This document shows, piece after piece, positions 3,687 through 24,900 of a stretch of DNA of 64,000 bases; within the stretch, counting starts at the first letter, position 1, and every line of letters begins with the position of its first letter. The notes beneath the pieces are model-generated. The model saw only the letters and a program-made list of their open reading frames with translations, was not told where the DNA came from and searched no databases. This DNA is from Acidimicrobiales bacterium (GTDB lineage Bacteria; Actinomycetota; Acidimicrobiia; Acidimicrobiales; DATDAH01). Position numbers and translations under genes: made by a program. The stretch is taken from NCBI GenBank assembly GCA_044221555.1, contig JBGAOY010000003.1, positions 282,241-346,240 of the forward strand, given 5' to 3'.

Positions 3687-3689
3687 CGC

Positions 3690-3959: not shown

Positions 3960-3977
3960 GGCCCTGCACCGTAGCGG

Positions 3978-4013: not shown

Positions 4014-4367
4014 TATGTCGTGCGGCTGCCCGAGCGGACCTCCGCCTCGGGTTCGCGCTCGTGGACGTGGTCTGCTTCGAGGTGAGCCGTGCTCGTCCCG
4101 TCGCAGTCCAACGTATGAACGCCTTCTGCAACCTGGACGCGTACGTCTCTCCCGCAGGTGTCCATCAAGAGAGCGATTCTCGGAGCAAGTGGTACGACAT
4201 CGCCCAGAGCTGGTGGATGCGCACGAGCGGCTGGGCGGCGGCCGGCGCAGGAGAGCGGCGGGCCAGCAGACCGTCGCTCAGCCTTATGAACGGCGTGGGG
4301 CGTTGCTCATCAGAGCCCAAGAGGCGCGAAGATCGCTCTTGACGACAGTCCGAGGAGGCGCGACCTG

Positions 4368-9333: not shown

Positions 9334-9350
9334 TACTACAAACTGTAGGA
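9334..9350. promoter_or_regulatory. BlaI-type operator upstream of PBP2
   Basis: TACTAC-AAACT-GTAGGA, 14 nt from the start codon. Confidence 0.7.
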
Positions 9351-9404
9351 AATCGAGTCGAGCCCCAGCTGTGCGGTAGTCGCGGGATGTTCACGGTCAG
9401 TTGC

Positions 9405-10547
9405 TTACGGGCGGCCGTAGCCATAGATCGAGCCTGGATAGCCGATGCTCCGAACCGACACCACCGAGCCCGAGTTCAGCGCATCGACGATCTGGCCTCC
9501 GCCGATGTACATGGCGACGTGGTGGATGCCGGAGGCACTGGGCCCGTAGAAGACGAGGTCGCCTGGTTGTAGATCGCTCGCTGACACCCGTCGGGTCACC
9601 GAGTACTGCATGCGGGAACTGTGTGGGAGGGATCGCCCTGCTTGAGCCCATGCCCACATCATGAGTCCGGAACAGTCGAAACCGGTCGACGGACTGGCTC
9701 CACCCCATTGGTACGGGACGCCCCGCATGCTCATGGCGGCGTCGACGGCGCCCTGTGCGCCTGTGGTCGGTGGTGGGGGCGCGGGCGGATCGACCGGCGC
9801 GTTGCCGGTACCGCCGCTGCCAGACCCATCGGGGGCGTCCAACGGCGGCTGGTCGGCGGCCCGAGCCGGCGCCTGGCGAGCGGCGGCGTCGACGGCGGCC
9901 TGGCGCGCAGCGGCCTCTTGTTCACGCTGCTGATCGATGAGTTGCTGCAGCTCTGCGTCGATCTGCGACTGAAGTGCCACCTGCTCGTCGATGGCCTGCT
10001 GCGCTTCGTTGGCAGACTGGTCGATCTGTGCGACGAGGGTCTCGGCTGCTTGACGGTTGTCCTCGAGGTCCGTCACGCGATCGCTGACGTCTTGCTCCGT
10101 GGCGTCCAACTGTTCGATGAGCTGTGCGCGGTTACCGGTGACTGAGTCGAGGTAGCCGAGTCGGATGGGCATCTCCCGATCGTTGCGGCTGTCGATGGCG
10201 ACGGTGAGCGCAGACGTGTCGGTGCCCCCCAGATACGCCCGAACCGCGTACGTCTGGAGTTCAGAGCGACGTTGATCGCGCTGGCGGACGGTGTCGTCCA
10301 GTCGGGCCTGAGCCTGGCCGATGCGTTCCTGGACCTGTGTCAGCTCAGCTCGAGCCTCGTTGGCGCGGTCGCCCAGCCTCGAGTAGCGGGCGCCGAGCTC
10401 ATCGAGCCGGGCCGCAACTTCACGGGCCTCCGCACGTTTGTCATCGATCGGCGACTGACTCGACGCGGGCGTGGAGCTTCCAAGCGCCGTCCCGATGAGC
10501 ACGCTGACGATGACAGACGTGTACCACCGCGCCCGAGGCGTGTGCAT
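9405..10547 (-). CDS. Secreted coiled-coil NlpC/P60 peptidoglycan endopeptidase
   Basis: Signal peptide, coiled coil, PYQWGG...FDCSGL...HHVAMY. Confidence 0.92.
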   Translation of the reverse strand: MHTPRARWYTSVIVSVLIGTALGSSTPASSQSPIDDKRAEAREVAARLDELGARYSRLGDRANEARAELTQVQERIGQAQARLDDTVRQRDQRRSELQTYAVRAYLGGTDTSALTVAIDSRNDREMPIRLGYLDSVTGNRAQLIEQLDATEQDVSDRVTDLEDNRQAAETLVAQIDQSANEAQQAIDEQVALQSQIDAELQQLIDQQREQEAAARQAAVDAAARQAPARAADQPPLDAPDGSGSGGTGNAPVDPPAPPPPTTGAQGAVDAAMSMRGVPYQWGGASPSTGFDCSGLMMWAWAQAGRSLPHSSRMQYSVTRRVSASDLQPGDLVFYGPSASGIHHVAMYIGGGQIVDALNSGSVVSVRSIGYPGSIYGYGRP

Positions 10548-10675
10548 GAACGAGACTCCTCCCGGCGATGGTACGAACAGTGGTCGAACGGCCGTGTGCG
10601 CCGCGAATGCAGCCAGCGCCGGCTCTTTCGAAAGCTGAGCCCGGCGGGTTCACCCTAGAGAAACCTTACCGAATC

Positions 10676-10692
10676 TGCGACACGGTGTCGTA
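10676..10692. promoter_or_regulatory. BlaI-type operator upstream of NlpC/P60
   Basis: TGCGAC-ACGGT-GTCGTA; exact reverse complement of 11306-11322. Confidence 0.65.
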
Positions 10693-10818
10693 ATCCACCG
10701 CAGGACCCCGCACCCGCACACGCGAACCATGGTGGTGACTGTCGTTCCTGCCCGGTACTCACGTCGACGTAGCTTCCGCTGACACTCCAGTGCCACGGCT
10801 CGCTCGCCGGGTGGGCGG

Positions 10819-11241
10819 TCATCGACTGGTTGCGGATGTCGTCCTCGTGGACGGGTCCACGGAAGCGACCGTCGTCGGTGGCACCGTCGGCGTGACACCG
10901 GCGCTGCCTCCCCCCTCCCCGACCACGCAATCGGTGTAGATCGCCACGAGGTCATCCGGAAGCGACGCGTTCGGGTCGTCGGCCAGGCGCTGGTCGATGC
11001 GGGCGAATCGGTCGTACGGGATCTCCCGCTCGAAGCGCCGGTACGCACAACGGCATACCGGTCGAAGGCCGTCGCCTCCCTGTGCCACGCAGGTGTCCAC
11101 GAAGTTCCGTTCGACCTCAGCGTTGTAGTCGGTCGGCTTGGACGTCTTGCTGCAGGCGGCGAGCACGAGGGTGAGGACGACGAGCGCGGCCCATGCCCAC
11201 CTGGCTTGACCCGCCGATCGCCGTGGCTGCGGTTCGGACAC
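10819..11241 (-). CDS. Hypothetical Cys-containing lipoprotein
   Basis: LAAC lipobox, C...CRC, Thr/Pro tail. Confidence 0.7.
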   Translation of the reverse strand: MSEPQPRRSAGQARWAWAALVVLTLVLAACSKTSKPTDYNAEVERNFVDTCVAQGGDGLRPVCRCAYRRFEREIPYDRFARIDQRLADDPNASLPDDLVAIYTDCVVGEGGGSAGVTPTVPPTTVASVDPSTRTTSATSR

Positions 11242-11251
11242 GGCCGCAGAC

Positions 11252-11322
11252 TATTACAGCTTGTAGTGGCAGTGGCGACACCAGGTTCGGGACCAAGGAC
11301 CCTGGTACGACACCGTGTCGCA
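11252..11322. promoter_or_regulatory. Two BlaI-type operators in a divergent promoter region
   Basis: TATTAC-AGCTT-GTAGTG (11252) and TACGAC-ACCGT-GTCGCA (11306). Confidence 0.65.
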
Positions 11323-11360
11323 GTCGATGCTTGATGACAGACCGAGTGAAAGGGCCGATC

Positions 11361-11582
11361 ATGGACGCCAAGCACATCGTCAAGCACCACCTCCTCATTC
11401 CCGCCGCGGTGGTGGGCGTACTTCTCCTCGTCGGAGCACCGCTCAACGTCGCCGTGGTCGCCGGCATGATGACCGGCTGCCTCAGCATGGTGTTCATGAT
11501 GGGCAGCTCGTCGGATGACCATGCCCACACCGACGATCGGTCCGCATCGGATGCGGAACGGGTGCATCGGAGCGAGGGCTGA
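11361..11582 (+). CDS. DUF2933-like small membrane protein
   Basis: Two TM segments, GCLSMVFMMG, His-containing tail. Confidence 0.65.
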   Translation: MDAKHIVKHHLLIPAAVVGVLLLVGAPLNVAVVAGMMTGCLSMVFMMGSSSDDHAHTDDRSASDAERVHRSEG

Positions 11583-11587
11583 GCGGG

Positions 11588-12535
11588 GTGGCAGCGCACC
11601 ACGCACCCACCACCAACGTTCGGGCGCTCAAGATCAGCTCGCTGCTAATCTTCGTCTACTTCTTCGCCGAGATACTCGTAGCGCTCGTCACCGGCAGCCT
11701 TTCGTTGCTGGCGGACGCCGCGCACGAGCTGTCGACGGTCGTCGCCATCTCGATCTCACTGATCGCGATGCGCCTCGCTCGGCGCCCCGCCACCCCGCAA
11801 CGAACCTTCGGCTTGCTTCGTGCCGAGGCGCTCGCCGCACTCCTGAACGGGGCACTGCTCGTCGGGATGGCGGGCTTCATCATCATCAGAGGCATCCAAC
11901 GACTGGCCGACCCGGTGGAGATGGAGCCGGGTCCGATGTTCGCGATGGCCATCGGTGGCATCGGGCTCGAGATCGCCTCGCTCGCGATCATGTACCGCGG
12001 TCAGAAGGAGGACCTCAACATCCGAGCCTCCTTCTGGCATGTGATGAACGCGTTCCTCGGGAGCGTGGCCGTGATCATCGCCGCCACCTTCATCGCAGTG
12101 GCGGACATCTACGAGGCCGACACGTGGGCCGGGATGATCTTCGCCGTCGTGTTGCTCTACGCCGCGTACGGCATCGTCCGGGACGCCTTGCGGATCCTGG
12201 TCGACGCGACTCCCTCGGACACCGATCTCGAGCAGGTGGCGGCGGGCCTGGAAGCGATCCCGGGCGTCCGTTCAACTCACCATCTGCACTCGCGAGTCGT
12301 CACGGGTCGGCTCCGGACCTTCAGCGGGCACGTGGTCGTCGATTCGACGAGTGACGCCATGGAAGTGCTTGCTCAGGCCAAGGACCTGCTCGACACGACC
12401 TACGGGTTCTCGCTGTCAACCATCCAGATCGAGCCGCAGGGGTTCGCAGAAGGCGACCCCCCGAGCATCGAGTACCAGCGCCCCGCCGAAGTCAGCCTTC
12501 AAGGGCACCAGGACCATCGCCCGTCAGGCGCGTGA
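11588..12535 (+). CDS. Cation diffusion facilitator (CzcD-like)
   Basis: SLSLLADAAHE, TFGLLRAE, NIRASFWHV, TIQIEP. Confidence 0.9.
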   Translation: MAAHHAPTTNVRALKISSLLIFVYFFAEILVALVTGSLSLLADAAHELSTVVAISISLIAMRLARRPATPQRTFGLLRAEALAALLNGALLVGMAGFIIIRGIQRLADPVEMEPGPMFAMAIGGIGLEIASLAIMYRGQKEDLNIRASFWHVMNAFLGSVAVIIAATFIAVADIYEADTWAGMIFAVVLLYAAYGIVRDALRILVDATPSDTDLEQVAAGLEAIPGVRSTHHLHSRVVTGRLRTFSGHVVVDSTSDAMEVLAQAKDLLDTTYGFSLSTIQIEPQGFAEGDPPSIEYQRPAEVSLQGHQDHRPSGA

Positions 12536-12991
12536 GTGGATGATGAAGTCGGCGTTGCTCTGCTGATACAAGCTGAAGGCCATCAGCGCGACGGCGAGGA
12601 AGGTCCAGCCCCACCAGGCCGGACGTCGTACGTGCAGGTTCACCCACCACCCGGTCGCGAGGCCAGCGGCAAGGCGGACGACACCCAGCACTCCGACTGC
12701 CACCAGAGCGAGGCTCAACGGGTTGTAGCGCCAGGCGAGGGCGAAGTCGCCGCGGGCGGCGGCAGTGGTGCCGCGGGTGAGCCCGCACGTCGGCTCGACC
12801 CAGCCGAACGCATGCGTTGGCATCGGCGTGTCGAAGGGAAATCCCCCGATCAGGGCCAGCGCCGCCGCGGTGAGACCGCCGCCGATGGCCAGCACGGTCA
12901 GCCAGCGCATGCGATCGGTGGTCTCAACGTGGAGGACCCCTCGGCGGACCGACGGCTCACGGCGCGTGTCCATGCAGCCATCATCGCTCAC
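12524..12991 (-). CDS. DUF2752-like membrane protein
   Basis: PTCGLTR...AWRYNPL. Confidence 0.7.
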   Translation of the reverse strand: MSDDGCMDTRREPSVRRGVLHVETTDRMRWLTVLAIGGGLTAAALALIGGFPFDTPMPTHAFGWVEPTCGLTRGTTAAARGDFALAWRYNPLSLALVAVGVLGVVRLAAGLATGWWVNLHVRRPAWWGWTFLAVALMAFSLYQQSNADFIIHSRA

Positions 12992-13063
12992 GCTGGGGGG
13001 TGAACGACCGACAGGCTGTCGTAGGCCGGGACGGCCGTGCCGATCGAGCTATGGGAGTGCCCG

Positions 13064-14488
13064 ATGACAAGAGCGACCCAGCAGGCCTCGGACACGAACG
13101 GACGAAGTTTCCCAACCCGTGTTGCGGTTCTGGGAGCGGGCATTGCCGGGCTGGTTGCCGCCACCGAGCTGCGACGACGAGGCGTCGAGGTGGTCGTGTA
13201 CGAGGCGGGCGCCCGCGTCGCCGGCATGGCGGAGAGCCACCACGACCCCGACGGGTTCAGCTACGACACGGGCGCCCACTTCATCACGAACCGGCTCGCG
13301 GCGGCCATCGGCGTGGAGGATCGCTGTCGCACGGTCCGTCACTACGGCGAAGCGGTGTTTCTGGCGGACGGGTCGGTGGCGTCGTATCCGTTCGGCTTGT
13401 TGCGACGGGGCCGGTTCGTGGGATCAGCGATGGCCGCGAAGGTGGCGGGTTTGCGCGCCAGTCCGATTTCTCGGACGGCTACCGAGTTCTTCCGGGCTGA
13501 GTACGGCACGGCCATGGCTGACGATGTCGTGTTGCCGCTGATCGAGGCGTGGTCCGGGGCACCAGGCGATCGTCTTTCTGCTGCCGTCGGGCAGAAGATC
13601 CCGACCAGCATCGCGCAGACGATGTGGCTCAAGGCGGCGACGAGGGTGACCCGGCGCGCCGTCGCCATCGGCTACTGCGGGGAGATGCCACAGAGCATGC
13701 ACGTGTGGCACGTGTACCCCGAAGGCGGAGTCAGTCTGCTGTGCGAGACCCTTGCTGCCGATCTGGGCGACGCCGTGCACCTCAGCAGTCCCGTCGAACG
13801 AGTCATCGTGCAGGACGAGCGGGTGGTCGCCGTGGACGTCGGCGGCCAGCGTGAGGAGGTCGACGGGGTGGTGAGCACCGCGCCGATCAACGTGCTCCCG
13901 CGGCTCGTTGAGGGATCAGAGCGGCTCGAGCGGTTCTCCGCCTTTCGGTACCGGCCGATGGTGTTCGCGAACCTCCGCTTCGCCGGGCGCAACCTCCTCC
14001 CCGACGTGGTCATGTGGGTCCCCGATCGGGGCCAGCCCTTCTTCCGCCTCACCGAGGCTCCGATGTCGATGCCTTGGCTGGCACCAGAGGGCAAGACGAT
14101 GATCACCGCGGATCTCGGGACCACCGTCGGATCCGAGATCTGGGACATGGAGCCTGACGAGCTGGGCGAGCGCTGCCTGGATGCGATGGAGACGCTGGTA
14201 CCGGGGCTGCGCGACCGCTACTTGGGTTGCCGTGTCGTCAAGACCCCGATCGCGTACCCGGTCTTCTCGACCGACTATGAGGAGGCACGGGCAGACCTGG
14301 TCGCGAACGGCACCGGGGTGGAGGGACTGCTGAGCGTCGGTCGCAACGGCGAGTTCGACCACATCCTCATGGAGGACATCTACTGGCGCACGAAGCGGCG
14401 TATCGAGCGCTGGTTGGACCGACGCACGCCCGACAACGAGCAGCGCCCCGGACCATTGGCCACGGCTCAGATGGGTGGCCAGCCGTAG
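13064..14488 (+). CDS. FAD-dependent oxidoreductase (HemY/amine oxidase superfamily)
   Basis: VLGAGIAGL dinucleotide-binding motif, DTGAH, GRNGEF. Confidence 0.8.
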   Translation: MTRATQQASDTNGRSFPTRVAVLGAGIAGLVAATELRRRGVEVVVYEAGARVAGMAESHHDPDGFSYDTGAHFITNRLAAAIGVEDRCRTVRHYGEAVFLADGSVASYPFGLLRRGRFVGSAMAAKVAGLRASPISRTATEFFRAEYGTAMADDVVLPLIEAWSGAPGDRLSAAVGQKIPTSIAQTMWLKAATRVTRRAVAIGYCGEMPQSMHVWHVYPEGGVSLLCETLAADLGDAVHLSSPVERVIVQDERVVAVDVGGQREEVDGVVSTAPINVLPRLVEGSERLERFSAFRYRPMVFANLRFAGRNLLPDVVMWVPDRGQPFFRLTEAPMSMPWLAPEGKTMITADLGTTVGSEIWDMEPDELGERCLDAMETLVPGLRDRYLGCRVVKTPIAYPVFSTDYEEARADLVANGTGVEGLLSVGRNGEFDHILMEDIYWRTKRRIERWLDRRTPDNEQRPGPLATAQMGGQP

Positions 14489-15195
14489 CGAGCGAACCAG
14501 GTCTGGACGGGCAGTAAGACGCGATCCCAGGCGCCGGTGATGAAGGCCATGCCCACCGCGATCATCAGCACACCACCGGCGCGCTCCACGGCGCGGCCGT
14601 GGCGCCGGAACCAGGCGACCGATCCACTGAGGCGTTGGTAGCCCATTGCGATGAGCAGGAACGGGATGCCCAGGCCCAGGGAGTACAGCAGCAGCAGCAC
14701 CCCTCCGGCGGCGACCGACCCTGATGGCGCCGCCAGGGCAAGGATCGTGGCCAGCACGGGGCCGACGCACGGGGTCCACCCGAACGCGAAGGCCATCCCG
14801 AGGGGAAAGGCTCCCAGGGGCCCCGGTCGCACACGAGCAAGGTCGAGCCGGCGCTCCCGGTCGAGCCAGGGCAGCCGCAGCACGCCGAGCGCGGCGAGTC
14901 CAGTGACGATGATCAGCACCCCGCCGGCCCTGGTCAGCACGGGGAGCTGTCGGATGAGCGCGACGCCGATGGCCGACGCGGTCACCCCGAGCGCCGTGAA
15001 CACGGCGCTGAACCCGGCCACGAAGAGCAACGACGAACGCAACATCAGTCCACGCGAACGTCCCTCGATCGGCGCGGTCACCGGCAGCGCAGAGACGTAG
15101 GAGACGTAGCCGGGGATCAGGGGGAGCGCGCACGGGCTCGTGATCGACAGGAGCCCCGCCACGACCGCTGCGGCCGGCAGGAGGGGACCGCTCAT
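14467..15195 (-). CDS. ccdA: Cytochrome c biogenesis/thiol transporter CcdA
   Basis: SPCALPLIPGY and WTPCVGP. Confidence 0.9.
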   Translation of the reverse strand: MSGPLLPAAAVVAGLLSITSPCALPLIPGYVSYVSALPVTAPIEGRSRGLMLRSSLLFVAGFSAVFTALGVTASAIGVALIRQLPVLTRAGGVLIIVTGLAALGVLRLPWLDRERRLDLARVRPGPLGAFPLGMAFAFGWTPCVGPVLATILALAAPSGSVAAGGVLLLLYSLGLGIPFLLIAMGYQRLSGSVAWFRRHGRAVERAGGVLMIAVGMAFITGAWDRVLLPVQTWFARYGWPPI

Positions 15196-15922
15196 GGCCC
15201 GGATGGTGCAACGGGCCGAGGAGATGGCGGTGCGACCTGGAGGGGAGGACGGCGCAGGCACAGCCCCACGAATCCCCGGTCGCGACGACGGCGATGGCGA
15301 GCGACTCACGATGGGGGCGGGTGAGGCCGCCGCCGAGCGCCGGCAACCAGAAGCTGGCCACCGCCCGCACGAGGGCGAGCCCGGCCACCGAGCCGACGAC
15401 GACGTGCACCGGCGCGCGGTGACGCCACGGCCACGCTGCTGCGCCGACTGCTCCGACGGCCACCGCCATGAGCAACCCCATGGGCACTACTCGCTGCGTG
15501 AGGCCCGGTGGAACGAGCCCGACCGGCGAGGCAGGACCGAAACAGCCGTCGCGCAGCGCGCAGCCCGCCTCCCAGGTCGCGTAGCCCCACAGCGCCAACG
15601 GCGCACCACAGGCCAGGACGGTCCACAGGGACCGGCCGCTCTTGGCCGCCCTGACGGCGACGACGGCTGCGCCCGCAGTGGCGCCGGCCCAGAACTCGAC
15701 GCCGCCGCGCACGCTCAGCATGCTCCGCAGGTCGCCGAGACCCGTTGGGTCGTCGAACGCGACCGCGACGATCCTCGCGGTGGCCAGCCCTGCCGCGACC
15801 GCCCAGAACCCGATGTCGAGCACATAGGCGACGTCCTCGTCGTCGCGGCCGGCGCGCCTGGCGATCAGGAACGGGACGACCGCCGCGAGCAGGGCGCTGG
15901 AGGCGAAGCGCAGGTCGATCAC
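15192..15922 (-). pseudogene. Lgt-family membrane protein with a frameshift near 15275 (real or assembly error)
   Basis: GLATARIVAV and RGGVEFW resemble Lgt; shifting frame in the GGGG run restores a TM end and a TGA overlapping the ccdA ATG. Confidence 0.6.
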
Positions 15923-16422
15923 GACCGAAGCGCGTCCTCGAGCTGTGCCGCCAACGTCTGCTCGCTGACGCCGCCGACGTCGGCCGCCGTGATCGCGCCG
16001 TCCCGGTCGAACACGTAGGTGGTGGGGAAGGCCCGCATGCCGAGCGCGCGTCGGATGTCACCGGAGCTGTCCAGGAGGTTTGGATAGCTCAGGTCGTAGC
16101 GCTCCATGAACCCTTCGGCCGCGCCCCGGCTGTCTCGTGACGCGACCCCGATGAACACGACATCGTCGCCGTAGTCGTTGGCGGCGCGCTCGAGCAGTGG
16201 CGCCTCAGACTGGCACGGCGGGCACCACGACGCCCAGACGTTGACCACCACGGGGCGGCCGCGCACACCCATCAAGACCGCCTCGAAGTCTTCCTCCGAT
16301 GCGTCGGTGAGCTGGCCCCCCGGGGGCAGGGGCGCCGGCGGACCCGACGCCACGAAATCCGTCGCGGCGGAAGATGTGGCGCAGGCGGCGAGGGTCAGCG
16401 ACGTCAGCGCGGCCAGCGACAA
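15919..16422 (-). CDS. TlpA/ResA-like thioredoxin lipoprotein
   Basis: LAAC lipobox, NVWASWCPPC, FPTT. Confidence 0.9.
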   Translation of the reverse strand: MSLAALTSLTLAACATSSAATDFVASGPPAPLPPGGQLTDASEEDFEAVLMGVRGRPVVVNVWASWCPPCQSEAPLLERAANDYGDDVVFIGVASRDSRGAAEGFMERYDLSYPNLLDSSGDIRRALGMRAFPTTYVFDRDGAITAADVGGVSEQTLAAQLEDALRS

Positions 16423-16436
16423 CCCGATGAACCAAC

Positions 16437-16453
16437 TACGACGTACCGTAGGA
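16437..16453. promoter_or_regulatory. BlaI-type operator upstream of tlpA-lgt-ccdA
   Basis: TACGAC-GTACC-GTAGGA. Confidence 0.7.
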
Positions 16454-16539
16454 GTTTACCGCCAGATCAACGACGGGCTATCGTCGCCAAGCGACGCGAC
16501 CGGTTCAGTTCAGACTGACGAGAAGCGTCTCGAACGAGT

Positions 16540-17427
16540 TCAGAGCGGGCAGACGTGCCGTGCGAGCGCGAGCACGTGGTGAAACTCGATCGTCGACGCA
16601 GCTGTCGCCACCAGCAGCGCGGTGACGCTGACGATCACAGCGAGTTCGGCGCGCAAACCTGCGGGAGGCGGTCCCTCAAGGAGGGCGTCGACCCGAGCGG
16701 GAACTCCACTTCCGGTGATCCCGAGCGCGCCGGCGGGTGCGGGGGTCGATCTGGCGAGCGCGATCTTGATGATGGCGCGCGCGACGACCTTTCGGTCACC
16801 CACGGCGCGAGCGGACTCCTCGTCGGCCCAGCGCTCCGTCGCGAACTGCAGGCGTCTCGAAAGGGGTTTGAGCGGCGGGACCGCAGCTGCCGCGATGTCT
16901 CCGACACGCACGAACCGGTGATGGTTGTAGCGGAGGTGAGCCTGCTCGTGGGCGAGCATCGCCGCACGTTCCTGTGTGTCCAGCAGGTCGAGCGCGCCGC
17001 GCGAGACGACCACATGACCCGGCCGGCCCGGGACCGCGAACGCGATTGGCTCGGCATGCGGCAACACCCTTATCCCGGTGGCCGCCGGCAGTCCCGCCGT
17101 GGCAGCGCGGTGCCTCGCCACCGCTCGCATGGCACCGACGAGCGCCCAGATCAGCCCGGCACCAGCGGCAAGGCCGAGGGCGTCAGACCCATGCCGGTGG
17201 GCGATCAAGGCATGGCACCATCCGAGTGACTCGGCTACCCACTGGAATTGGGCGATCCAGCCCACCAACAGCAAGACCAATGCCCAGATCACGCCGAGGG
17301 CACAGACGACGAGCATCGCCGTCATCACCTGCACCGCATGCCTCGGCGGGAGCCGGCGCTGGATGGCGCCGGCGAGCACGCCACACGTCACGCTTGCGAC
17401 CAGCGGCGCGAAGAGCAGCGGAGTCAC
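16540..17427 (-). CDS. M56-family (BlaR1-like) membrane metalloprotease without a penicillin-sensor domain
   Basis: LAHEQAHL, ERWADE, four TM segments; overlaps the blaI-like stop codon. Confidence 0.88.
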   Translation of the reverse strand: MTPLLFAPLVASVTCGVLAGAIQRRLPPRHAVQVMTAMLVVCALGVIWALVLLLVGWIAQFQWVAESLGWCHALIAHRHGSDALGLAAGAGLIWALVGAMRAVARHRAATAGLPAATGIRVLPHAEPIAFAVPGRPGHVVVSRGALDLLDTQERAAMLAHEQAHLRYNHHRFVRVGDIAAAAVPPLKPLSRRLQFATERWADEESARAVGDRKVVARAIIKIALARSTPAPAGALGITGSGVPARVDALLEGPPPAGLRAELAVIVSVTALLVATAASTIEFHHVLALARHVCPL

Positions 17428-17789
17428 GCTGGATCGGATTCGAGTCCGTCGAGAATCTTGCGGAGCGCCGCGGCTTCGGCCGTTGAGAGCGTGTTCACGA
17501 ACCGCCCAAGTACCGCCTCACGATCATTCGCCGCGGCGAGCGCATCGGTCATCCGTCCGGCGCGCAGCTCAGCTTCGGTCACTGTCGGCCGGTACGCATA
17601 CGCGCGGCCTCGGCGCTCCCGTTCGACGAGGCCCTTTTTGAGGAGCCGGGTCTGGATCGTCATGACCGTGGTGTAGGCCAGATCTGTGTCGAGTGCAGCC
17701 AGGACCTCAGCGGGGGTCATGGCGTCCTCGCTAGCCCACATGACCTCCAGGACGTCGGACTCCAGAGATCCTTGCGGGCGGCGAACCAC
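17424..17789 (-). CDS. BlaI/MecI/CopY family repressor
   Basis: GSLESDVLEVMW...LAYTTVMTIQTRLLKKGLV...RAYAY; GTG start inferred. Confidence 0.92.
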   Translation of the reverse strand: MVRRPQGSLESDVLEVMWASEDAMTPAEVLAALDTDLAYTTVMTIQTRLLKKGLVERERRGRAYAYRPTVTEAELRAGRMTDALAAANDREAVLGRFVNTLSTAEAAALRKILDGLESDPA

Positions 17790-17899
17790 CGGCGCATCGT
17801 AGCGGTCGAAAGCGGCTGCCTGAATGCGCGAGTGCGTGCGATGCTCAACCGGGACCTGCTCAGTTTGTGGAGCTCGGTCGCCGTACAGTGGACTGCTGC

Positions 17900-17916
17900 T
17901 ACTACGTCCCGTCGTA
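17900..17916. promoter_or_regulatory. BlaI-type operator between blaI and the cupredoxin gene
   Basis: TACTAC-GTCCC-GTCGTA. Confidence 0.75.
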
Positions 17917-17929
17917 TCCAGGAGCCACC

Positions 17930-18469
17930 ATGAGCCCGTCCCGCCGAACCCTCGCCTCGATCTCCATCGTGGCCTTCGTCGCCGTCCTCGGCGCGTGCGG
18001 GTCCGACGAGGATGGCGGAGCCTCCAGCGCCGTCCTTGCCAATGGAGACCGAGTCGAGGTGGGGATGGCCGATCTCGGGTTCCATCCATCGACCTTCACG
18101 GTCCAGCGGGGCGCAACGGTGACGTTCGCCTTCGAGAACACCGACAGCATCGACCACGAGGCCCTGATCGGTGACGAGGCCGCGCAGGACGCGCACGAGG
18201 CAGAGATGGCTCACTCGGGCGGTGACATGACGGACAGCACCGACGACACGACAGCCACGACGGCCGCTGGCATGAGCGGGATGGAAGGGATGAACCACAA
18301 AGCTGGTGCATCCGACCCAGGCGAATCGGTGCTCGTGGCTCCTGGGGAGACTGCCGAGATCAGCTACACCTTCGACGAGGCTGGCACCCTGTTGCTCGGC
18401 TGCCACCAGCCTGGGCACTACGACGGCGGGATGAAGGCAACCATCACGGTGACAGCGTCTGACGATTGA
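17930..18469 (+). CDS. Cupredoxin lipoprotein with Met/His-rich insert
   Basis: LGAC lipobox; HE...CHQPGHYDGGM type-1 Cu ligands. Confidence 0.9.
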   Translation: MSPSRRTLASISIVAFVAVLGACGSDEDGGASSAVLANGDRVEVGMADLGFHPSTFTVQRGATVTFAFENTDSIDHEALIGDEAAQDAHEAEMAHSGGDMTDSTDDTTATTAAGMSGMEGMNHKAGASDPGESVLVAPGETAEISYTFDEAGTLLLGCHQPGHYDGGMKATITVTASDD

Positions 18470-18556
18470 TCGCCGCCAGAACCAGGTTCTGCATCATGTA
18501 GTAGGGAGTGGCGCCCTCTGATGGTCCGGGGTACCTCGGCCGCGCATCGGGATCGA

Positions 18557-18958
18557 TCAGCGCCCCAGTTGCTTCGCCACCTCTGCCCGGCTCGGCGGGT
18601 TGTCACGTTGACCCCACAACATCAGTGCGATGAGCAAGAGCACGGCACCCGCCGGGAAGCCCGCGACCAGGTCCTGAGCACTGGAGGGGAGGAACGAGCC
18701 GAGCAGGTCGAGCGAGTCCATGTGCTCGAGGAAGTGGTTGACGATCACGAGGATGCCGGCAACGGCGAGGACGGCCGCGACGGCCTTCTGGCGCCGCCTG
18801 CGGCGGAAGTGTTGTCTGAGGTATGCGGCCCACTCGTCGTCGCTGATGCCGCCGACGCGTGAGCTTCGGACCTTCCCACCTTCGCCAGCATCCGCCTTCG
18901 TCGACGGATTGCCGCCCGGGCGCTTCCGACGCTGCTTCGAGCCAGAACTCATCCCCAC
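18557..18958 (-). CDS. Hypothetical two-TM membrane protein
   Basis: Basic N-terminus, NHFLEH between TM segments; BlaI-type box at 18963-18979 directly upstream. Confidence 0.6.
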   Translation of the reverse strand: MGMSSGSKQRRKRPGGNPSTKADAGEGGKVRSSRVGGISDDEWAAYLRQHFRRRRRQKAVAAVLAVAGILVIVNHFLEHMDSLDLLGSFLPSSAQDLVAGFPAGAVLLLIALMLWGQRDNPPSRAEVAKQLGR

Positions 18959-18987
18959 AGACTACTACAGGACGTAGTTCAGTGGCA

Positions 18988-19812
18988 TCAGGCCGCGGTT
19001 GACGGCACCTCCTCCGAAGAGCGCTGCCTTCGGAGTCGGAGGATCAGGATCACGCCGGAGACGACGATGGCCGTCAGGCTTGTCCAGATGTTGACGCGAA
19101 CGCCCAGGATCAGCGAGGCAGGGTCGATGCGCAACGCTTCGATCCACAAGCGTCCGGTGAAATAGCCGCCGACGTAGACCCACAGCAAGCTGCCGCGCGG
19201 CAGCAGTCGCCGGCGATCGAGCCAGATGAGCAGGCCGCAGAGAGCCAGGTTCCACAGACCTTCGTACAGGAACGTCGGGTGGAACGTGGCGACGGTCTCG
19301 TAGCCACGGGGGCGGTTCGCGGGGTCGATCCGCAGCGCCCACGGGAGGTTCGTCGGTCGACCGAACAGCTCCTGGTTGAACCAGTTGCCGAGGCGGCCGA
19401 TGGCCTGCGCGAGTGGGACTGCGGGGATCGCGGCATCGATGAGCTCGGGGAGCGGCATCCGGTGCCGTTTCGCGTACCACACCGCCACCAACGTTCCCGC
19501 CAGCAGACCACCGGGTATGCCAAGGCCGCCGTTCCAGATCTCGAGCGCTGCCGACCAGCGGCCTTCATAGCGCTGGTAGTCGGTGATCACGTGGTAGAGA
19601 CGTGCCCCGATGAGGCCGGCGGGCACGGCCCACAACGCCATGCTGCTGATCTCGTCAGCGTCGTGGCCACAAGCAGCCCAACGCCGGCGAGCCAGAGCGA
19701 CGGCGGCGATCACTCCGAGGGCGATGGCCAGGCCGTAGGCGCGGAGGTGCAAGGGACCCACGACGAGCTCGTTGGTGGACGGGCTCGGCAACGCGCCGAG
19801 GACCGCGTTCAC
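18988..19812 (-). CDS. lgt: Prolipoprotein diacylglyceryl transferase
   Basis: RAYG, GARLYHV, QAIGRLGNWFNQELFG, HPTFLYE. Confidence 0.95.
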   Translation of the reverse strand: MNAVLGALPSPSTNELVVGPLHLRAYGLAIALGVIAAVALARRRWAACGHDADEISSMALWAVPAGLIGARLYHVITDYQRYEGRWSAALEIWNGGLGIPGGLLAGTLVAVWYAKRHRMPLPELIDAAIPAVPLAQAIGRLGNWFNQELFGRPTNLPWALRIDPANRPRGYETVATFHPTFLYEGLWNLALCGLLIWLDRRRLLPRGSLLWVYVGGYFTGRLWIEALRIDPASLILGVRVNIWTSLTAIVVSGVILILRLRRQRSSEEVPSTAA

Positions 19813-20438
19813 GCGTCGACCTTCCCGCTGTTCGCGTCACTCGCGGTCGCGTCGGCCTCGGCCTTCACGGCACGGAACCTCATCCACTGGTTTCCCCGTG
19901 CCGGCGAAACCTCGACCGAGCCGAACCCCGCCATCGTCAGGCCGTCCCGTAGCCCGTCGGCAGAAAGCAGTTCCACGACCGATCGGTCGACCTGGTGGAA
20001 CCAGCGAGCGATCGCACTGCGGGTCAGGTCGTAGCCGACAAGTGCGCCACCGGGTCGCAGGACCCGGTGTGCCTCCGCGAGGGCATGTCGCCAGTCGACC
20101 ACGTGGTGGAGCATGAGGAAGCTCGCCACCGCGTCGAAGGACCCATCGCCGAAGGGCAGCGCGGTCACGTCGGCGACCTCGACCGTCGAGTCGGTGCCCT
20201 TCAGCCGCCGCCGCGCGGCGTCGACCATCGCGGCGTCGACGTCGGTCAGCGTGAGGTCGATGTCTGGCGCCCTGCGAAGCAAGACCTCGGCCATCGCACC
20301 AGACCCGCCGCCGATCTCGAGGACCCGGCCTGAGATGGGCATGCCGGACAGCATCCAGGGCAGCACGACCCGTCCGGCGAACGCCCGCCACGGTGCGCTC
20401 CTGCACAAGATGGCTTCTGCGCTCGACATCACCGGCAT
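19809..20438 (-). CDS. Class I SAM-dependent methyltransferase
   Basis: VLEIGGGSG, LPFGDGSFD, RVLRPGG. Confidence 0.9.
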   Translation of the reverse strand: MPVMSSAEAILCRSAPWRAFAGRVVLPWMLSGMPISGRVLEIGGGSGAMAEVLLRRAPDIDLTLTDVDAAMVDAARRRLKGTDSTVEVADVTALPFGDGSFDAVASFLMLHHVVDWRHALAEAHRVLRPGGALVGYDLTRSAIARWFHQVDRSVVELLSADGLRDGLTMAGFGSVEVSPARGNQWMRFRAVKAEADATASDANSGKVDA

Positions 20439-20538
20439 GATCTGTTCACCTCTCGTCGGCGCCCATGGGAGATTCTACGACATCGTGTCGTTTGTGCGAC
20501 GCCGCCAGGTCACCGCTGCGCGAGGGTCCTCCTATAGG

Positions 20539-21516
20539 TCACGTCGGCCCGCTCGACGCCTCCGCGAACCGGCCGAGGTTCGGGCCGTCGGGGTCTCTTG
20601 GAGCTCCGTCGGCGAGCAGCCCGAACACACCAGCGATGACCCCCCACATCAGCGCGATGCTGCCGAGCGCGAACAACCGGAAGTGCCAGATCACCGTGGA
20701 GAAGGCGTGGGGGACGAGGTGAGTGGTGTCGACGGCCACGGGGGTTCCGGCCAGATCCGACGGCTGCTCCAAGGCTGCCAGATCGAGTGGTTCAGCAGGA
20801 TCGTTCGGATCGCGCAGTGACTCGTCGCCCGTGGCGCGCGCCGTCGACAGCAGGCGGTCGAGGACCTCGGTCGGCGCATCGCCGGCGACGACCAGTGCCG
20901 GGGTTGCCTCATTGGTCAAGGGAACGACCGGGTCTGGGCTCGCCGGCCACAGGAGCATCAACGCCGAGACCATGAGCACGAACCCACTCCCCCCGATCAG
21001 GTAGCGCCCCGGCCCCGACCAACCCCGGCTCGTGAGCCACTCCCACAGGTACAAGGCCAGGAGCACCACCAGGACGGACGCGGCGATCAACAGCAGGTAC
21101 TCGAGCGTGCGAGTCTCGATGGTGTCCGGGTTGCCCACCGCCGGCGGGTTGGGCGGGTACTTGAGGGCGGGGATGAGCGTGAGGGCGACGAAGGCGCCGA
21201 TGGAGACCTTCAGCCCGCGCTCGAACTCGCTCCGCCCTCGGAGGCGGTGGTGCAGGGCGCTCACCGTGACGCCGAGCACGACGCCCATGAGCAGCCCGAA
21301 CAGGACCGTGGCGAGCATGCCGCCTCCCTGCTGAGCCGATCGGCTGAAGAGTGCCGGGTCGCCGGGGGGAAGCCCGAGTTGAGACGCTTCCTCGAAGTCG
21401 AGCGCCTTGTGGATCTGGGTCTCGGTGACCAGGCGGACGAAGACGGCCGCGACCACTCCTCCTGCCGCTCCCGCGGCAAGCCCGCGACCGATGAAGAACT
21501 TGGCATTCTTGGACAT
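20539..21516 (-). CDS. cbtA: CbtA-family putative cobalt transporter
   Basis: RGLAAG, ALDFEE, PALKYPPNPPAVG, WHFRL; lies downstream of a B12 riboswitch. Confidence 0.85.
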   Translation of the reverse strand: MSKNAKFFIGRGLAAGAAGGVVAAVFVRLVTETQIHKALDFEEASQLGLPPGDPALFSRSAQQGGGMLATVLFGLLMGVVLGVTVSALHHRLRGRSEFERGLKVSIGAFVALTLIPALKYPPNPPAVGNPDTIETRTLEYLLLIAASVLVVLLALYLWEWLTSRGWSGPGRYLIGGSGFVLMVSALMLLWPASPDPVVPLTNEATPALVVAGDAPTEVLDRLLSTARATGDESLRDPNDPAEPLDLAALEQPSDLAGTPVAVDTTHLVPHAFSTVIWHFRLFALGSIALMWGVIAGVFGLLADGAPRDPDGPNLGRFAEASSGPT

Positions 21517-21544
21517 CGCTGCTCCATCCACTCGTGGTTTCGGT

Positions 21545-21700
21545 GCAGCAGGTCTCCTGGCTCCCAGATCGATGCTTGGCTGCGCCTTCCCAGGGACGGG
21601 ACGAATCCCGGCACCCCAGTGGCTGCGTGCAACGTCGCTCCCTGGTCACAGTGGCGAGGACCGCGCCGGACTTCCACCGGCTTCCCTCACCGCGAATGCA
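21545..21700 (-). ncRNA. Cobalamin riboswitch
   Basis: Minus strand AGGGAAGCCGGTGGAAGTCCGGCGCGGTCCTCGCCACTGTGA...GCCACTG...GGGAAGGC...GAGCCAGGAGACCTGC (B12 box). Confidence 0.93.
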
Positions 21701-21889
21701 ACGCTAGCCGGGCGTACACACCGCCGACCACCCGGCGACGAGGTGGGCGAGGCGCCCCCGTACGAACTTGGGCGAACCGGTGAGACGCCGTTCACCCGGC
21801 CCGGGCGAGAGGGTCCAATGGCCCTAGTGCTACAGCGAGTAGGAGTCCATCCTTCTCCTCATCGACCACATCGAGGAAGGGATCCGATC

Positions 21890-22153
21890 ATGATGTACTG
21901 GAACGGCTCGGGGGACTGGGGCTGGGCGGCCTGGTTGGCGATGGGTTTCATGATGCTTCTCTTCTGGGGGGTCGTCCTCGGCGCCGTCGTCGTGCTAGCA
22001 CGGGGTGCACTCCCCGGAGCGGCGAGACCAGACGTCGCCGGCCCGGAGCGTCTCCTCGCTGAACGCTTCGCCCGTGGCGAGATCGACACCGATGAGTACC
22101 ACGCCCGGTTGGCGGCGCTTCGCACGGGGCCGGGCACCAAGCCACCAGGTTGA
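21890..22153 (+). CDS. SHOCT-domain membrane protein
   Basis: MMYW...TM...LLAERFARGEIDTDEY; BlaI-type box at 21828-21844. Confidence 0.85.
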   Translation: MMYWNGSGDWGWAAWLAMGFMMLLFWGVVLGAVVVLARGALPGAARPDVAGPERLLAERFARGEIDTDEYHARLAALRTGPGTKPPG

Positions 22154-22238
22154 CAGACAGCCGGGCGTCGGGCAGCCGGTAGTCTCCTACAGCCCGTCGT
22201 AGCTCGTTCTCCCCACGTTCGGCCCCCAAGGAGCATCC

Positions 22239-23768
22239 ATGTCCGCGCCGTTGCGCATCGACCGCCGCCGGTTCCTCCAACTGACCGGCGCCGGCCTCGT
22301 GTTCGTGGCAGGCTGCGCGAGCTCGGACACCACCGCCGCGCCGACCCGTCCGACGGTGGGACCCACCGATCCGGTGGTGGCCGCCGTCGAGCGGGCTCGA
22401 GCGAGGCCCGGGGCCTCGGTGACGAGGTTCGATCTCCGTGCGTCTCCGGCCACGATCGACCTTGGCGGCCGTCAGGTCGACACGTGGGCCTACAACGGTG
22501 GTGTGCCCGGCCCGGAGTTGCGGGTGACCGAGGGCGACGTGCTCGAGGTCGCGGTGCGCAACGACCTCCCCGAAGCCACCACCATCCACTGGCACGGCGT
22601 GGCTCTGCGCAACGACATGGACGGCGTGCCCGACCTCACGGGCGCGTCCATCGACCCGGGGGCGTCGTTCACCTACCACTTCACCGTCCCCGACGCCGGC
22701 ACGTACTGGTTTCACCCCCACATGGGCCTCCAACTCGATCGGGCCCTGTATGCCCCCCTCGTCGTCGAAGAACGAGCGGGCCCGGGCGATTACGACGTCG
22801 ACCAGGTCGTGGTGCTCGACGACTGGCTCGACGGGGTGACCGGCACGCCGGAAGACATCTACGCCGGCCTTGCTGGCATGACATCGATGGGATCGGGCGG
22901 GATGAGCGGCATGGGCGGCATGAGCAGCCAGCGCGGCACGGGGATGTACCAATCCGATCTGTTGGGGGGCGATGCCGGCGATGTGGGCTACCCCTTGCAC
23001 TTGCTCAACGGTCGGCCGGTGTCGGATCCGCCTACCGTCCGCGTGCCGGCAGGCGGACGGGCCCGACTGCGGCTGATCAACGCGGGATCTGACACTGCCT
23101 ACCGCGTTGCCCTCGGCGGTCACCGCATGACGGTCACCCATGCCGACGGGTTCCCTGTGAAGCCGGTGGAGGTCGAGGCTGTGCTGCTCGGGATGGGGGA
23201 GCGCTACGACGTCTTGGTGCAGCCCCGCTCGGGTGCCTGGCCTCTGGTCGCGCTCGCCGAGGGGAAGGACCGGACGGCCATGGCGGTGGTCCGAACGGCG
23301 GGTGCGGGATCGACTGCACCGCCGTCATCCAACGTCCGACCGTCAGAGCTCGACGGCCGCCTCCTCCGCTATCGGGATCTCCGAGCGACCGAGTCGGTGC
23401 GACTCGGACGTCGCGAACCGGACCTCGAGCAGGTCGTGCGGATCACGGGTTCGATGATGCCGTATGACTGGTCCTTCGATGGTGTGGCGTTCCCGCAACA
23501 CCCGCACCTCGAGGTCGAACACGGCCAACGGGTTCGGCTCACGTTCGACAACACCTCGCCGATGTGGCACCCGATCCACGTGCACGGCCACACGTTCCGC
23601 CTCGGCGAGGCGCCGAGCGGACCCCGCAAGGACACCGTCAACGTGCTGCCGGGGGAGCGCGTAGTCGTCGAGCTCGACGCCGACAACCCTGGCCAGTGGA
23701 TGGCCCACTGCCACAACACGTACCACCTCGAGCGTGGCATGGCCTTGGTCATGTCGTACGTGACCTGA
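22239..23768 (+). CDS. Multicopper oxidase, Tat lipoprotein (MmcO/CueO-like)
   Basis: RRRFL, VAGC, HWHG, WFHPH, HPIHVHGH, HCHNTYHLERGM; BlaI-type box at 22185-22201. Confidence 0.95.
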   Translation: MSAPLRIDRRRFLQLTGAGLVFVAGCASSDTTAAPTRPTVGPTDPVVAAVERARARPGASVTRFDLRASPATIDLGGRQVDTWAYNGGVPGPELRVTEGDVLEVAVRNDLPEATTIHWHGVALRNDMDGVPDLTGASIDPGASFTYHFTVPDAGTYWFHPHMGLQLDRALYAPLVVEERAGPGDYDVDQVVVLDDWLDGVTGTPEDIYAGLAGMTSMGSGGMSGMGGMSSQRGTGMYQSDLLGGDAGDVGYPLHLLNGRPVSDPPTVRVPAGGRARLRLINAGSDTAYRVALGGHRMTVTHADGFPVKPVEVEAVLLGMGERYDVLVQPRSGAWPLVALAEGKDRTAMAVVRTAGAGSTAPPSSNVRPSELDGRLLRYRDLRATESVRLGRREPDLEQVVRITGSMMPYDWSFDGVAFPQHPHLEVEHGQRVRLTFDNTSPMWHPIHVHGHTFRLGEAPSGPRKDTVNVLPGERVVVELDADNPGQWMAHCHNTYHLERGMALVMSYVT

Positions 23769-24735: not shown

Positions 24736-24900
24736 GGTCTTCCTTTCGCTGTCCTGATCATCGGCGGTGGCAGACATCCCGCCATCCGCAGGGCTTACGG
24801 AAACGTCGCTGCGGGCGAATACGTACGGGACCACGGGAAGCTCGTTGGGCTGCGGCACGACCTCCGACACCGTGTCGTGGGTGACGGATAGGCTCGGCTT

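Follow-up and report, generated by a model that had tools for sequence, protein, structure and literature searches.

The window analysed here is a 64,000-nucleotide stretch of contig JBGAOY010000003.1 (positions 282,241 to 346,240) from the genome of an Acidimicrobiales bacterium. At its positions 16540–17789 lies a pair of reverse-strand genes encoding a BlaI/MecI/CopY-family winged-helix repressor and a BlaR1/PetP-like zinc metalloprotease without a sensor domain. The pair is best described as an actinobacterial (Acidimicrobiia) counterpart of the cyanobacterial PetR/PetP system, from which it differs in output and candidate ligands. At the level of the system, metal-activated regulated proteolysis is well supported in silico: the pair is situated in a copper island, its repressor gene is the sole BlaI gene of the genome, operator-like sites precede copper genes, and PetR/PetP provides a precedent. 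Judging from this context, copper is the probable signal, and the sequences indicate that the protease likely cuts the BlaI-like protein. The chances that the whole mechanism outlined below is correct, i.e., that a PetR/PetP-type proteolytic switch acts as the envelope copper sensor of this Acidimicrobiia bacterium, seem to us evenly balanced. A narrower proposal, in which the penicillin sensor of BlaR1 has been replaced in this clade by a two-piece copper receptor (a loop with W-C...H and a 15-residue tail helix) that triggers repressor cleavage by way of a loop-to-C-terminal contact like that of BlaR1, is put forward tentatively.

Based on the results described below, we suggest the following course of events. 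In the absence of a signal, a dimer of the BlaI-like protein would occupy 17-bp palindromes (cTACGACA-N3-TGTCGTAg) that overlap the starts of about 12 transcription units or immediately precede them. Among the units held in check, some would serve extracytoplasmic copper defence (a CopI-like cupredoxin, a multicopper oxidase and the thiol reductant path of ResA/CcdA) and others the maintenance of the envelope (two genes of the Lgt type, a penicillin-binding protein (PBP) and an NlpC/P60 protein). External copper would be sensed by a loop (W70-C71, H77) and by the C-terminal tail (Q-x-H283-H284-x6-H291-x-C293) of the protease. Binding of the metal may alter the contact between loop and tail and lead to a BlaR1-like opening of the cytoplasmic HExxH...ExxxD site, after which the repressor would be cut near R96-F97 and the regulon derepressed. 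Cytoplasmic copper and the CopZ/CopA exporters would be handled by two CsoR repressors of the island, which have their own boxes. This proposed division of labour between the BlaI pair and CsoR parallels that of CueR versus CusRS.

The repressor–protease pair

The repressor gene (17424–17789, reverse strand) encodes 121 amino acids (aa) from a GTG start at 17789, which agrees with the N-termini of 12 homologues. The protein matches PF03965 (Penicillinase_R) over residues 7–114 of 121 with an E-value of 3.1e-24 and 86 bits against a cut-off of 22.6, and a genome profile search found its gene to be the only PF03965 gene of the 5.88-Mb genome. The closest solved relative is M. tuberculosis BlaI, Rv1846c (2g9w, E 1.2e-16). 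With TIGR02698, the NCBIfam equivalog model of CopY/TcrY, it scored 40.6 bits, below the cut-off of 121.95. Neither Cys nor His occurs among its 121 residues; a C-terminal CxC or CxCx4CxC metal site is absent, and no Cys is conserved in the 12 homologues. The initial annotation had described a repressor that lacks Cys and the CxC sites of CopY; this was borne out, and His proved to be absent as well.

According to the accessible text of PMC9834060, S. aureus BlaI is cleaved at N101-F102, Phe102 being the P1' residue. In a profile alignment, R96-F97 of the window repressor aligns with N101-F102 of S. aureus BlaI (1sd4), and F97, which is invariant in 13 of 13 sequences, also corresponds to the Phe of MecI. 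The P1 residue at this candidate scissile bond is Arg in the window repressor and Asn in S. aureus BlaI.

The protease gene (16540–17427, reverse strand, GTG start) encodes 295 aa, and its start overlaps the repressor stop by 4 nucleotides (nt; GTGA). The window copy is the only homologue of the protease in its own genome. In 77 of 80 related loci, the protease gene is immediately preceded by a BlaI gene. Protease homologues (E ≤ 1e-20) are present in 23 of 301 genomes of the class, the window genome (G000) counted, which is a patchy spread. In a phylogeny of 101 proteases, built by FastTree only and containing many long branches, the window protein and 29 Acidimicrobiia-type loci form one clade (local support 100), and the Streptomyces types fall outside it.

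Based on Pfam annotation, the protease is a Peptidase_M48 protein (PF01435, E 3.7e-11), and it showed no match to Peptidase_M56 (PF05569) at E ≤ 0.01. A 42%-identical homologue is labelled 'M56 family metallopeptidase' by its source, and a few homologues match PF01435 and PF05569 together. The zinc-binding and catalytic motif H160-E-Q-A-H164 (16936–16950, reverse strand) is followed downstream by the third-ligand motif E198-x-x-x-D202, and the two match the H201EXXH/E242XXXD signature of BlaR1. All 128 representatives examined have H160, E161, H164, E198 and D202. The earlier designation of the protein as an M56 protease is not borne out by Pfam.

Four hydrophobic segments were recognised (residues about 3–23, 28–58, 82–104 and 258–280), together with a gluzincin domain, predicted to be cytoplasmic, and a C-terminal tail of 15 residues. 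Since the protein stops 15 residues past its last hydrophobic segment, it has no PBP-like domain, as had been noted before, and no transpeptidase or beta-lactamase family was matched in Pfam. Of the two Cys/His stretches singled out in the initial annotation, WCHALIAHRH was confirmed as residues 70–79, between transmembrane helices (TM) 2 and 3, and FHHVLALARHVC as residues 282–293 at the C-terminus. The TM2–TM3 loop (residues 59–81; 17185–17253, reverse strand) contains W70-C71 (C71 codon at 17215–17217) and H77. The tail (residues 281–295; 16543–16587, reverse strand), a helical extension of TM4, includes C293 (codon at 16549–16551), and its signature in the family is Q-x-H-H-x6-H-x-C.

An AlphaFold2 model of the protease, made from a 128-row alignment, was of high confidence, with a mean predicted local distance difference test (pLDDT) score of 89.7 and a predicted template modelling (pTM) score of 0.87. 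In this model, helices are predicted at residues 3–23, 28–58, 62–68, 72–76 and 82–110, followed by the protease domain and a single long helix of residues 258–292. A Foldseek search of the PDB with the model gave nothing at E ≤ 0.001, and a profile search of PDB sequences matched HtpX/M48 fragments and not BlaR1. After re-scoring of the Foldseek list with VIA, the S. aureus BlaR1 chains 8exs_A (Z 10.2, root-mean-square deviation (rmsd) 5.4, 204 residues, model residues 6–241 on chain residues 6–289) and 8ext_A (Z 10.1, rmsd 3.8, 195 residues) ranked joint first, counted as tied, within 1 Z, with ZMPSTE24 (6bh8_A, Z 10.1); for helical proteins, a VIA Z of about this size is only moderate and not decisive alone. 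Only the BlaR1 chains gave a co-linear alignment from the N-terminus through the protease domain (residues about 5 to about 243), and ZMPSTE24, Ste24p and BepA matched just residues 85–255 or 112–255.

The mean number of Lys and Arg residues is 2.1 in the loop 24–30, 4.0 in the segment 103–125, 1.5 in the loop 59–81 (Asp and Glu, 1.8) and 0.4 in the tail. As described in the available part of PMC9834060, BlaR1 has an Nout-Cout topology with a cytosolic H201EXXH/E242XXXD site, and its extracellular loop between helices 2 and 3 (EL1) is seated within the sensor domain, where beta-lactam displaces it. Because the charge bias of the window protease agrees with this topology, the loop 59–81 may be taken as the counterpart of EL1, and the tail would occupy the position of the BlaR1 penicillin sensor. 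From the charge bias and the co-linear match to BlaR1, both are predicted to lie outside the cytoplasm, which is in line with the earlier idea that the Cys/His patches could bind metal outside the membrane. A complex prediction for two copies of the protease scored 0.00 against a mark of 0.42 and gave no answer either way.

The operator-like palindrome, its predicted regulon and the copper linkage

A perfect 17-bp palindrome, TACGACA-N3-TGTCGTA, is located at 17900–17916, in the divergent region shared by the repressor gene and the CopI-like gene and 13 nt upstream of the latter. Starting from it and from a presumed M. tuberculosis BlaI box, we searched with the pattern TACNAC-N5-GTNGTA, allowing at most one mismatch. 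The window contains 9 matches versus 0.21 in shuffled sequences; 8 of the 9 lie upstream of a start by no more than 150 nt, and the distances from site to start in the window range from 5 to about 130 nt. The 5.88-Mb genome contains 92 matches, of which 8 are inside 12.9 kb of the window (9334–22201), and elsewhere the density is about 0.9 per 64 kb.

Over the 424 kb of the related loci, the pattern matched 63 times (9.5 per 64 kb), in 23 of the 29 loci, compared with 1.6 per 64 kb in 71 other loci. The great majority (56 of 63) are outside called open reading frames (ORFs), some of them just upstream of blaI operons; the ORFs of the relatives were called by a crude caller based on G+C at third codon positions (GC3), which left 29% of the DNA uncalled. 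The consensus of the relatives' sites is cTACGACAnnnTGTCGTAg and contains the core GAC-N5-GTC. A position weight matrix (PWM) made from the relatives only was run on the window genome; of the ten highest-scoring matches eight, and of the 30 highest-scoring (≥16.5 bits) 13, fell in the window, between 9.3 and 38.6 kb. Two strong PWM matches outside the window, C33:373275 and C33:396011, were rejected as operators, being at the end of an ORF or inside one, and the window site 32427 was dropped as intragenic.

Based on sequence, the BlaI-like protein likely binds this palindrome. The assignment was made because the genome has a single PF03965 gene, the site shares the PetR core, its half-sites resemble the cop box, and the CsoR boxes are distinct. 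The half-sites in question are ACA/TGT, and the cop box is given as TACANNTGTA in the accessible part of PMC7253601. The possibility that the palindrome is a CsoR operator was rejected: no more than 3 of the 29 loci of the relatives contain a CsoR gene, and the csoR and copZ promoters have their own TACCCC...GGGGTA boxes, which we take to be the CsoR consensus. In the window, such inverted repeats are found at 3975–4016, 38499–38513 and 39475–39509, before both csoR genes (3690–3959 and 39161–39445) and copZ. The island seemingly holds two separate copper regulons.

Operator-like sites precede about 12 transcription units of the island. The likely targets include three copper-related units. 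The CopI-like cupredoxin lipoprotein (17930–18469, forward strand) has the lipobox LGAC and a His/Met-rich stretch and matches PF00127 (E 1.5e-8) and the NCBIfam CopI model (E 4.4e-26, below the curated cut-off). The multicopper oxidase (22239–23768, forward strand; Cu-oxidase_3, Cu-oxidase_2 and Cu-oxidase, E 5.5e-39 to 2e-23) is preceded at 38 nt by the site 22185–22201. Directly downstream of the protease gene lies the operon 14467–16422 (reverse strand), encoding a ResA/TlpA-like CPPC redoxin lipoprotein (15919–16422), a short Lgt-like protein (15306–15922; a weak match, E 2.6e-8) and CcdA/DsbD_TM (14467–15309), with the Lgt-like gene standing between the other two. The site of this operon (16437–16453) is found after the protease stop, 15 nt upstream of the ResA-like gene, and with 27.9 bits it is the second best PWM match of the genome. 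A 668-aa open frame at 13916–15922 (reverse strand), which overlaps the CcdA and Lgt-like genes in another frame, was rejected as a gene and regarded as a high-G+C artefact.

The class B PBP gene (7335–9320, reverse strand) has the best match of the genome (9334–9350, 30.1 bits) 14 nt upstream of it, and the NlpC/P60 peptidoglycan hydrolase gene (9405–10547, reverse strand) also has its own site upstream, at 10676–10692. Further sites are located at 20476–20492, 38 nt upstream of an operon in which a methyltransferase gene (19809–20438, reverse strand) overlaps by 4 nt the full-length Lgt gene behind it (18988–19812, reverse strand), and at 18963–18979, 5 nt upstream of a gene for a 133-aa membrane protein. 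A 140-aa ORF that belongs to no known family (10819–11241, reverse strand) is preceded by two sites (11252–11268 and 11306–11322). Weaker sites were found at 13007–13023 (16.7 bits), in the 45-nt divergent gap between a DUF2752 gene and a flavin amine-oxidase-like gene, and at 24863–24879 (17.6 bits), 22 nt before the gene for a GAF histidine kinase. The site 36573–36589 is situated between the divergent genes 35605–36567 (reverse) and 36579–36983 (forward), with an ApbE gene downstream. Finally, the site 38531–38547 is 16 nt upstream of the ORF 38563–39096 and is adjoined by the CsoR-type box 38499–38513; the two boxes are 18 nt apart, and dual control of this ORF is possible.

To describe the surroundings of the pair in the relatives, 301 ORFs within 6.5 kb of the protease gene at the 29 related loci were scanned against Pfam. 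The copper families counted were cupredoxin, multicopper oxidase, CopC/CopD, HMA ATPase or CopZ, CsoR, DUF305, SCO1, DUF1775 and YHS. Such families are near the pair at 21 of the 29 clade loci, and at 19 of 29 when DUF305, a family with a copper role, is left out; L009 was counted by a tblastn match to the CopI-like protein alone. The copper context was ambiguous at three loci (L007, L012 and L116), and within the 6.5 kb no copper family was found at L005, L011, L114, L115 and L126, three of which had 61–73% of their DNA uncalled. At the Streptomyces paralogue loci, copper families were found within 4.5 kb in none of 11; these paralogues neighbour cell-wall genes, and farther away there were an MCO-like match at about 8 kb (L015) and CcdA/ResA-like matches at about 6 kb (L010).

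Candidate ligands and the nature of the signal

The conservation of the Cys and His residues was assessed in two alignments. The first (A1) comprised 90 rows with the query, i.e., 89 of 120 listed homologues after removal of the identical self-match and 30 short or partly covering rows. The second (A2) comprised 128 rows with the query, i.e., 127 of 150 listed cluster representatives after removal of 23 fragments. C71 is present in 90/90 rows of A1 and 117/128 of A2, C293 in 87/90 and 115/128, H283 in 88/90 and 108/128, H284 in 80/90 and 113/128, and W70 in 85/90 and 114/128. The Gln at position 281, where the window protein itself has Glu, is found in 77/90 and 117/128 rows. Conservation is lower for H291 (58/90 and 85/128) and H77 (61/90 and 75/128), and H79 is not conserved (21/90 and 18/128). 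In A2, C71 and C293 occur together in 112 rows, both are missing in 8, and a single one is kept in 5 + 3. Two or more Met residues in the TM2–TM3 loop were seen in 1 of 128 rows, and the window loop 59–81 has none.

The homologues from Streptomyces, Kitasatospora and Amycolatopsis have W-S at the loop position, and their tails either end in ...AATPL or are rich in His and Cys. One sensorless BlaR-like subfamily of Streptomyces has His/Cys-rich tails with a CC pair and several His, and the other, with ...AATPL, stands beside TerD/TerB/TerC genes (loci including L004, L006, L008, L010 and L013–L019); neither subfamily has copper genes in its vicinity.

Within the clade, a table of 30 rows was compiled for the Cys residues and the HH pair, of which 29 were evaluable for Cys, L117 being cut at its N-terminus. 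Both Cys are present in 23 of the 29 members; three have the loop Cys only (L011, L064 and L114), one has the tail Cys only (L123), and two have neither (L124 and L125). The leading idea is that C71, C293, H283, H284 and H291 are metal ligands; it is weakened by the clade members without Cys or HH.

A number of points weigh against the mechanism proposed above. H72, part of the loop stretch highlighted in the initial annotation, is not conserved (5/90 in A1 and 10/128 in A2). Among the 21 evaluable members with a copper context, 17 have both Cys, one the loop Cys only (L064), one the tail Cys only (L123) and two neither; these last, L124 and L125, nevertheless have copper genes and 5 and 3 operator matches, respectively. 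The HH pair is missing in 7 of the 30 rows (L002, L003, L012, L114, L116, L121 and L126), six of which keep both cysteines, and L114 keeps the loop Cys only. The covariation of C71 and C293, ranked 19 of 41,905 pairs by mutual information with average product correction (MI-APC), was rejected as evidence of a contact: C71 pairs equally with far residues, and because C71-V183 and C71-G241 rank alongside, the covariation is read as a subfamily signal. Extracytoplasmic copper sites are more often built of Met and His, and the Met ligands proposed for PetP are missing here. The two Cys could instead form a disulfide, a DsbB-family gene being present in the genome, and the cell-wall genes of the regulon are compatible with an envelope-damage signal. 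To these points may be added the moderate structural match mentioned above and the fact that the palindrome was assigned to BlaI by association and family resemblance.

Since H72 and H79 are unconserved, the clade has gaps in the Cys and HH residues, a disulfide role is possible and the ligands are putative, the original reading of the two patches as metal sites driving proteolysis is supported in part. What stands is the conservation and predicted outward position of C71, C293, H283 and H284, either of which could have failed and so contradicted that reading, and the regulated system in its copper setting; H72 and H79 drop out, and the relatives lacking Cys or HH count against the metal-binding role.

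The main rival explanation retains the same circuit and regulon and treats C71 and C293 as a thiol/disulfide switch, with copper-catalysed or other oxidation to a disulfide, or its reduction, resetting the contact of loop and tail and gating proteolysis, so that the system would report envelope thiol stress. It is favoured by the exactly two conserved outward Cys, which are gained or lost together (112 rows with both and 8 with neither; two clade members have lost both), by the single DsbB-family gene, and by the ResA-like CPPC redoxin and CcdA encoded directly downstream under their own operator and recurring near L002, L007, L124 and L125. However, L124 and L125 keep redoxin/CcdA or Ccm neighbours without sensor Cys, and the reductant path is therefore not tied to the sensor. 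A disulfide switch also leaves the Q-x-H-H...H of the tail unexplained, and neither VKOR nor a Thioredoxin_4 DsbA was found in the genome, which is 95% complete. On balance, we regard this explanation as unlikely. That the signal is not copper itself but damage to the envelope (stress on peptidoglycan or on lipoprotein maturation, and possibly beta-lactams), with the copper genes as one output of several, appears improbable. The sensorless BlaR proteins of mycobacteria are thought to act in this way, and the closest solved repressor is M. tuberculosis BlaI; operators stand before the class B PBP and NlpC/P60 genes and, in the relatives, near YkuD L,D-transpeptidase, VanY, M23 and Lgt genes. 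The signal of sensorless BlaR proteins is itself called open in the accessible part of bioRxiv 10.64898/2026.08.03.742534. Yet most target units encode copper proteins, copper genes accompany 21/29 clade loci versus 0/11 Streptomyces paralogues beside cell-wall genes, no beta-lactamase was seen among the annotated window genes, and the clade-specific Cys/His signature would remain unexplained.

There is a slim chance that copper is the signal but acts on a partner that then contacts the protease. Candidates for this role are the CopI-like lipoprotein, the 133-aa membrane protein and some lipid or peptide product, and the Cys and His residues would serve for folding or for docking of the partner. 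Here and at L002, L003, L009, L107, L110 and L119, a gene for a CopI-like cupredoxin neighbours the pair or is transcribed divergently from it, and some copper-linked members do without the Cys pair. Nevertheless, cupredoxin neighbours occur at a minority of the 29 loci, neither co-variation nor complex evidence points to any partner, and E. coli extracts with petRP alone gave copper-dependent degradation, as stated in the available text of bioRxiv 10.1101/2020.07.31.226407. Hardly credible is the view that no regulated signal exists, the repressor being turned over constitutively or the pair being a relic, with palindromes that belong to another regulator. It draws on the result that no sigma-70-like promoter was found in 16380–18000, in a scan that is uninformative for a high-G+C actinobacterium. 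Against it stand the invariance of all catalytic residues, the gene pairing kept in 77/80 loci, the palindrome that tracks the pair in 23/29 loci, and the distinct CsoR boxes.

Relation to known systems and further genes of the island

The cyanobacterial PetRP is the one system in which copper is known to trigger proteolysis of a BlaI-type regulator. In Synechocystis sp. PCC 6803 (slr0240/slr0241), degradation of the regulator requires PetP and copper, in extracts as well as in vivo (Garcia-Canas et al. 2021; bioRxiv 10.1101/2020.07.31.226407, in its accessible part); a PNAS commentary on this copper-dependent degradation is also available (PMC7896320). The window pair resembles PetR/PetP in having a BlaI/CopY-family regulator without the copper sites of CopY and a sensorless M48/M56 protease with a cytoplasmic HExxH site. 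As far as the available text of the source describes it, the TMs of PetP (4–21, 28–50, 65–87 and 256–278) are at nearly the same positions, the stop and start codons overlap, and the operator core is GAC-N5-GTC. In contrast, PetRP governs four genes of the plastocyanin/cytochrome c6 (petE/petJ) switch and not copper homeostasis, and here about 12 copper and envelope units would be governed. The ligands proposed for PetP are two Met in a 14-residue loop, according to the same accessible text, whereas the window loop has 23 residues, no Met, and W-C plus His; the window protease also adds the tail Q-x-H-H-x6-H-x-C. The hosts differ too, Cyanobacteria as against Actinomycetota, and the comparison with PetP/PetR was made from their published description. 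PF03965 had no match in the control cyanobacterium Synechococcus elongatus.

With BlaI/BlaR1 and MecI/MecR1 of S. aureus, the pair shares the repressor fold family and the conserved Phe at the scissile position. Likeness to BlaR1 extends to the structural match over BlaR1 residues 1–290 (Z about 10), the HExxH/ExxxD motifs, a likely Nout-Cout topology and an outward TM2–TM3 loop. Unlike BlaR1, the window protease lacks the penicillin-binding sensor (class D beta-lactamase-like) and is unmatched by PF05569, and a metal is the candidate for its signal; an output of the beta-lactamase or PBP2a type was not seen here. CopY/TcrY of Firmicutes have in common with the window repressor the DNA-binding family, copper genes as targets (likely ones in the window) and ACA/TGT half-sites in a palindromic operator. 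CopY itself binds Cu(I) by a C-terminal CxCx4CxC or CxC, according to the accessible portion of a review (Chem Rev 2024, PMC11672702), whereas the window repressor is free of Cys and sensing would be passed to the membrane protease.

BlaR homologues without a sensor domain are also paired with BlaI in Rv1846c/Rv1845c of M. tuberculosis, in the M. abscessus pair and in PvmSR of P. aeruginosa (bioRxiv 10.64898/2026.08.03.742534). Unlike the window pair, these systems have signals that are open or tied to beta-lactams or virulence, and the accessible part of that source, on whose description the comparison is based, mentions no copper link or Cys/His loop–tail signature. CsoR, a cytoplasmic Cu(I) sensor, and the two-component systems CopRS and CusRS, which sense extracytoplasmic copper, are functional analogues. 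Both CsoR and CopRS/CusRS belong to unrelated families, and they act by allostery or phosphotransfer, in contrast to the irreversible proteolysis proposed here.

A 2026 review still calls the sensing site and the membrane location of PetP unresolved. According to a 2023 review, genes of copper homeostasis are outside the control of PetRP, and what BlaR homologues do in heterotrophs is yet to be elucidated. In the literature searched, outside which most subscription journals fall, no report of a BlaI/BlaR pair controlling copper-resistance genes was found. The present locus and about 30 relatives offer a module wired to copper resistance, with a defined operator and regulon and a short list of conserved outward Cys and His residues, and they point to an unexplored link of copper stress with cell-wall and lipoprotein enzymes in Actinomycetota. 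If the two-piece receptor proposal is true, the pair would serve these bacteria as their master envelope copper sensor, and copper detoxification would be coupled to peptidoglycan remodelling and lipoprotein maturation (PBP, NlpC/P60, YkuD and extra Lgt). It would also give the first residue-level model of signal perception by sensorless BlaR proteases, the PetP-like ones included.

Cell-wall enzymes recur near or behind BlaI-type boxes: PBP and NlpC/P60 in the window, and YkuD, VanY and M23 in the relatives (L124:15061–16230, L125:11262–12434, L003, L107 and L110). This suggests that peptidoglycan remodelling is part of the copper response. Copies of Lgt recur beside the BlaI/protease pair at L002, L110, L119 and L124; it is possible that the extra copies shield lipobox cysteines under copper stress.

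The island further contains genes for CopZ, three P-type ATPases, a YHS protein, a CDF transporter and a CbtA-like protein. One of the P-type ATPases (27265–30168, forward strand, 967 aa) has an N-terminal cupredoxin-like and a C-terminal YHS domain, an unusual combination in a copper pump. A C-terminal YHS domain is also found in the proteins encoded at 5625–6977 (forward strand) of the window and at L003:8993–10069 and L107:6634–7992. In L003 and L107, YHS is fused to an adenylate/guanylate cyclase domain, and the L107 gene stands behind a perfect BlaI-type box (position 6604); these fusions represent a possible link from copper to cyclic nucleotides. The CbtA-like gene (20539–21531, reverse strand), for a proposed cobalt transporter subunit, matches PF09490 (E 3.3e-44) and is below the NCBIfam cut-off. 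At L118, a large ORF (33–4010) with TcA C-terminal TcB-binding and neuraminidase-like domains is located about 5 kb from the pair, beside a multicopper oxidase gene.

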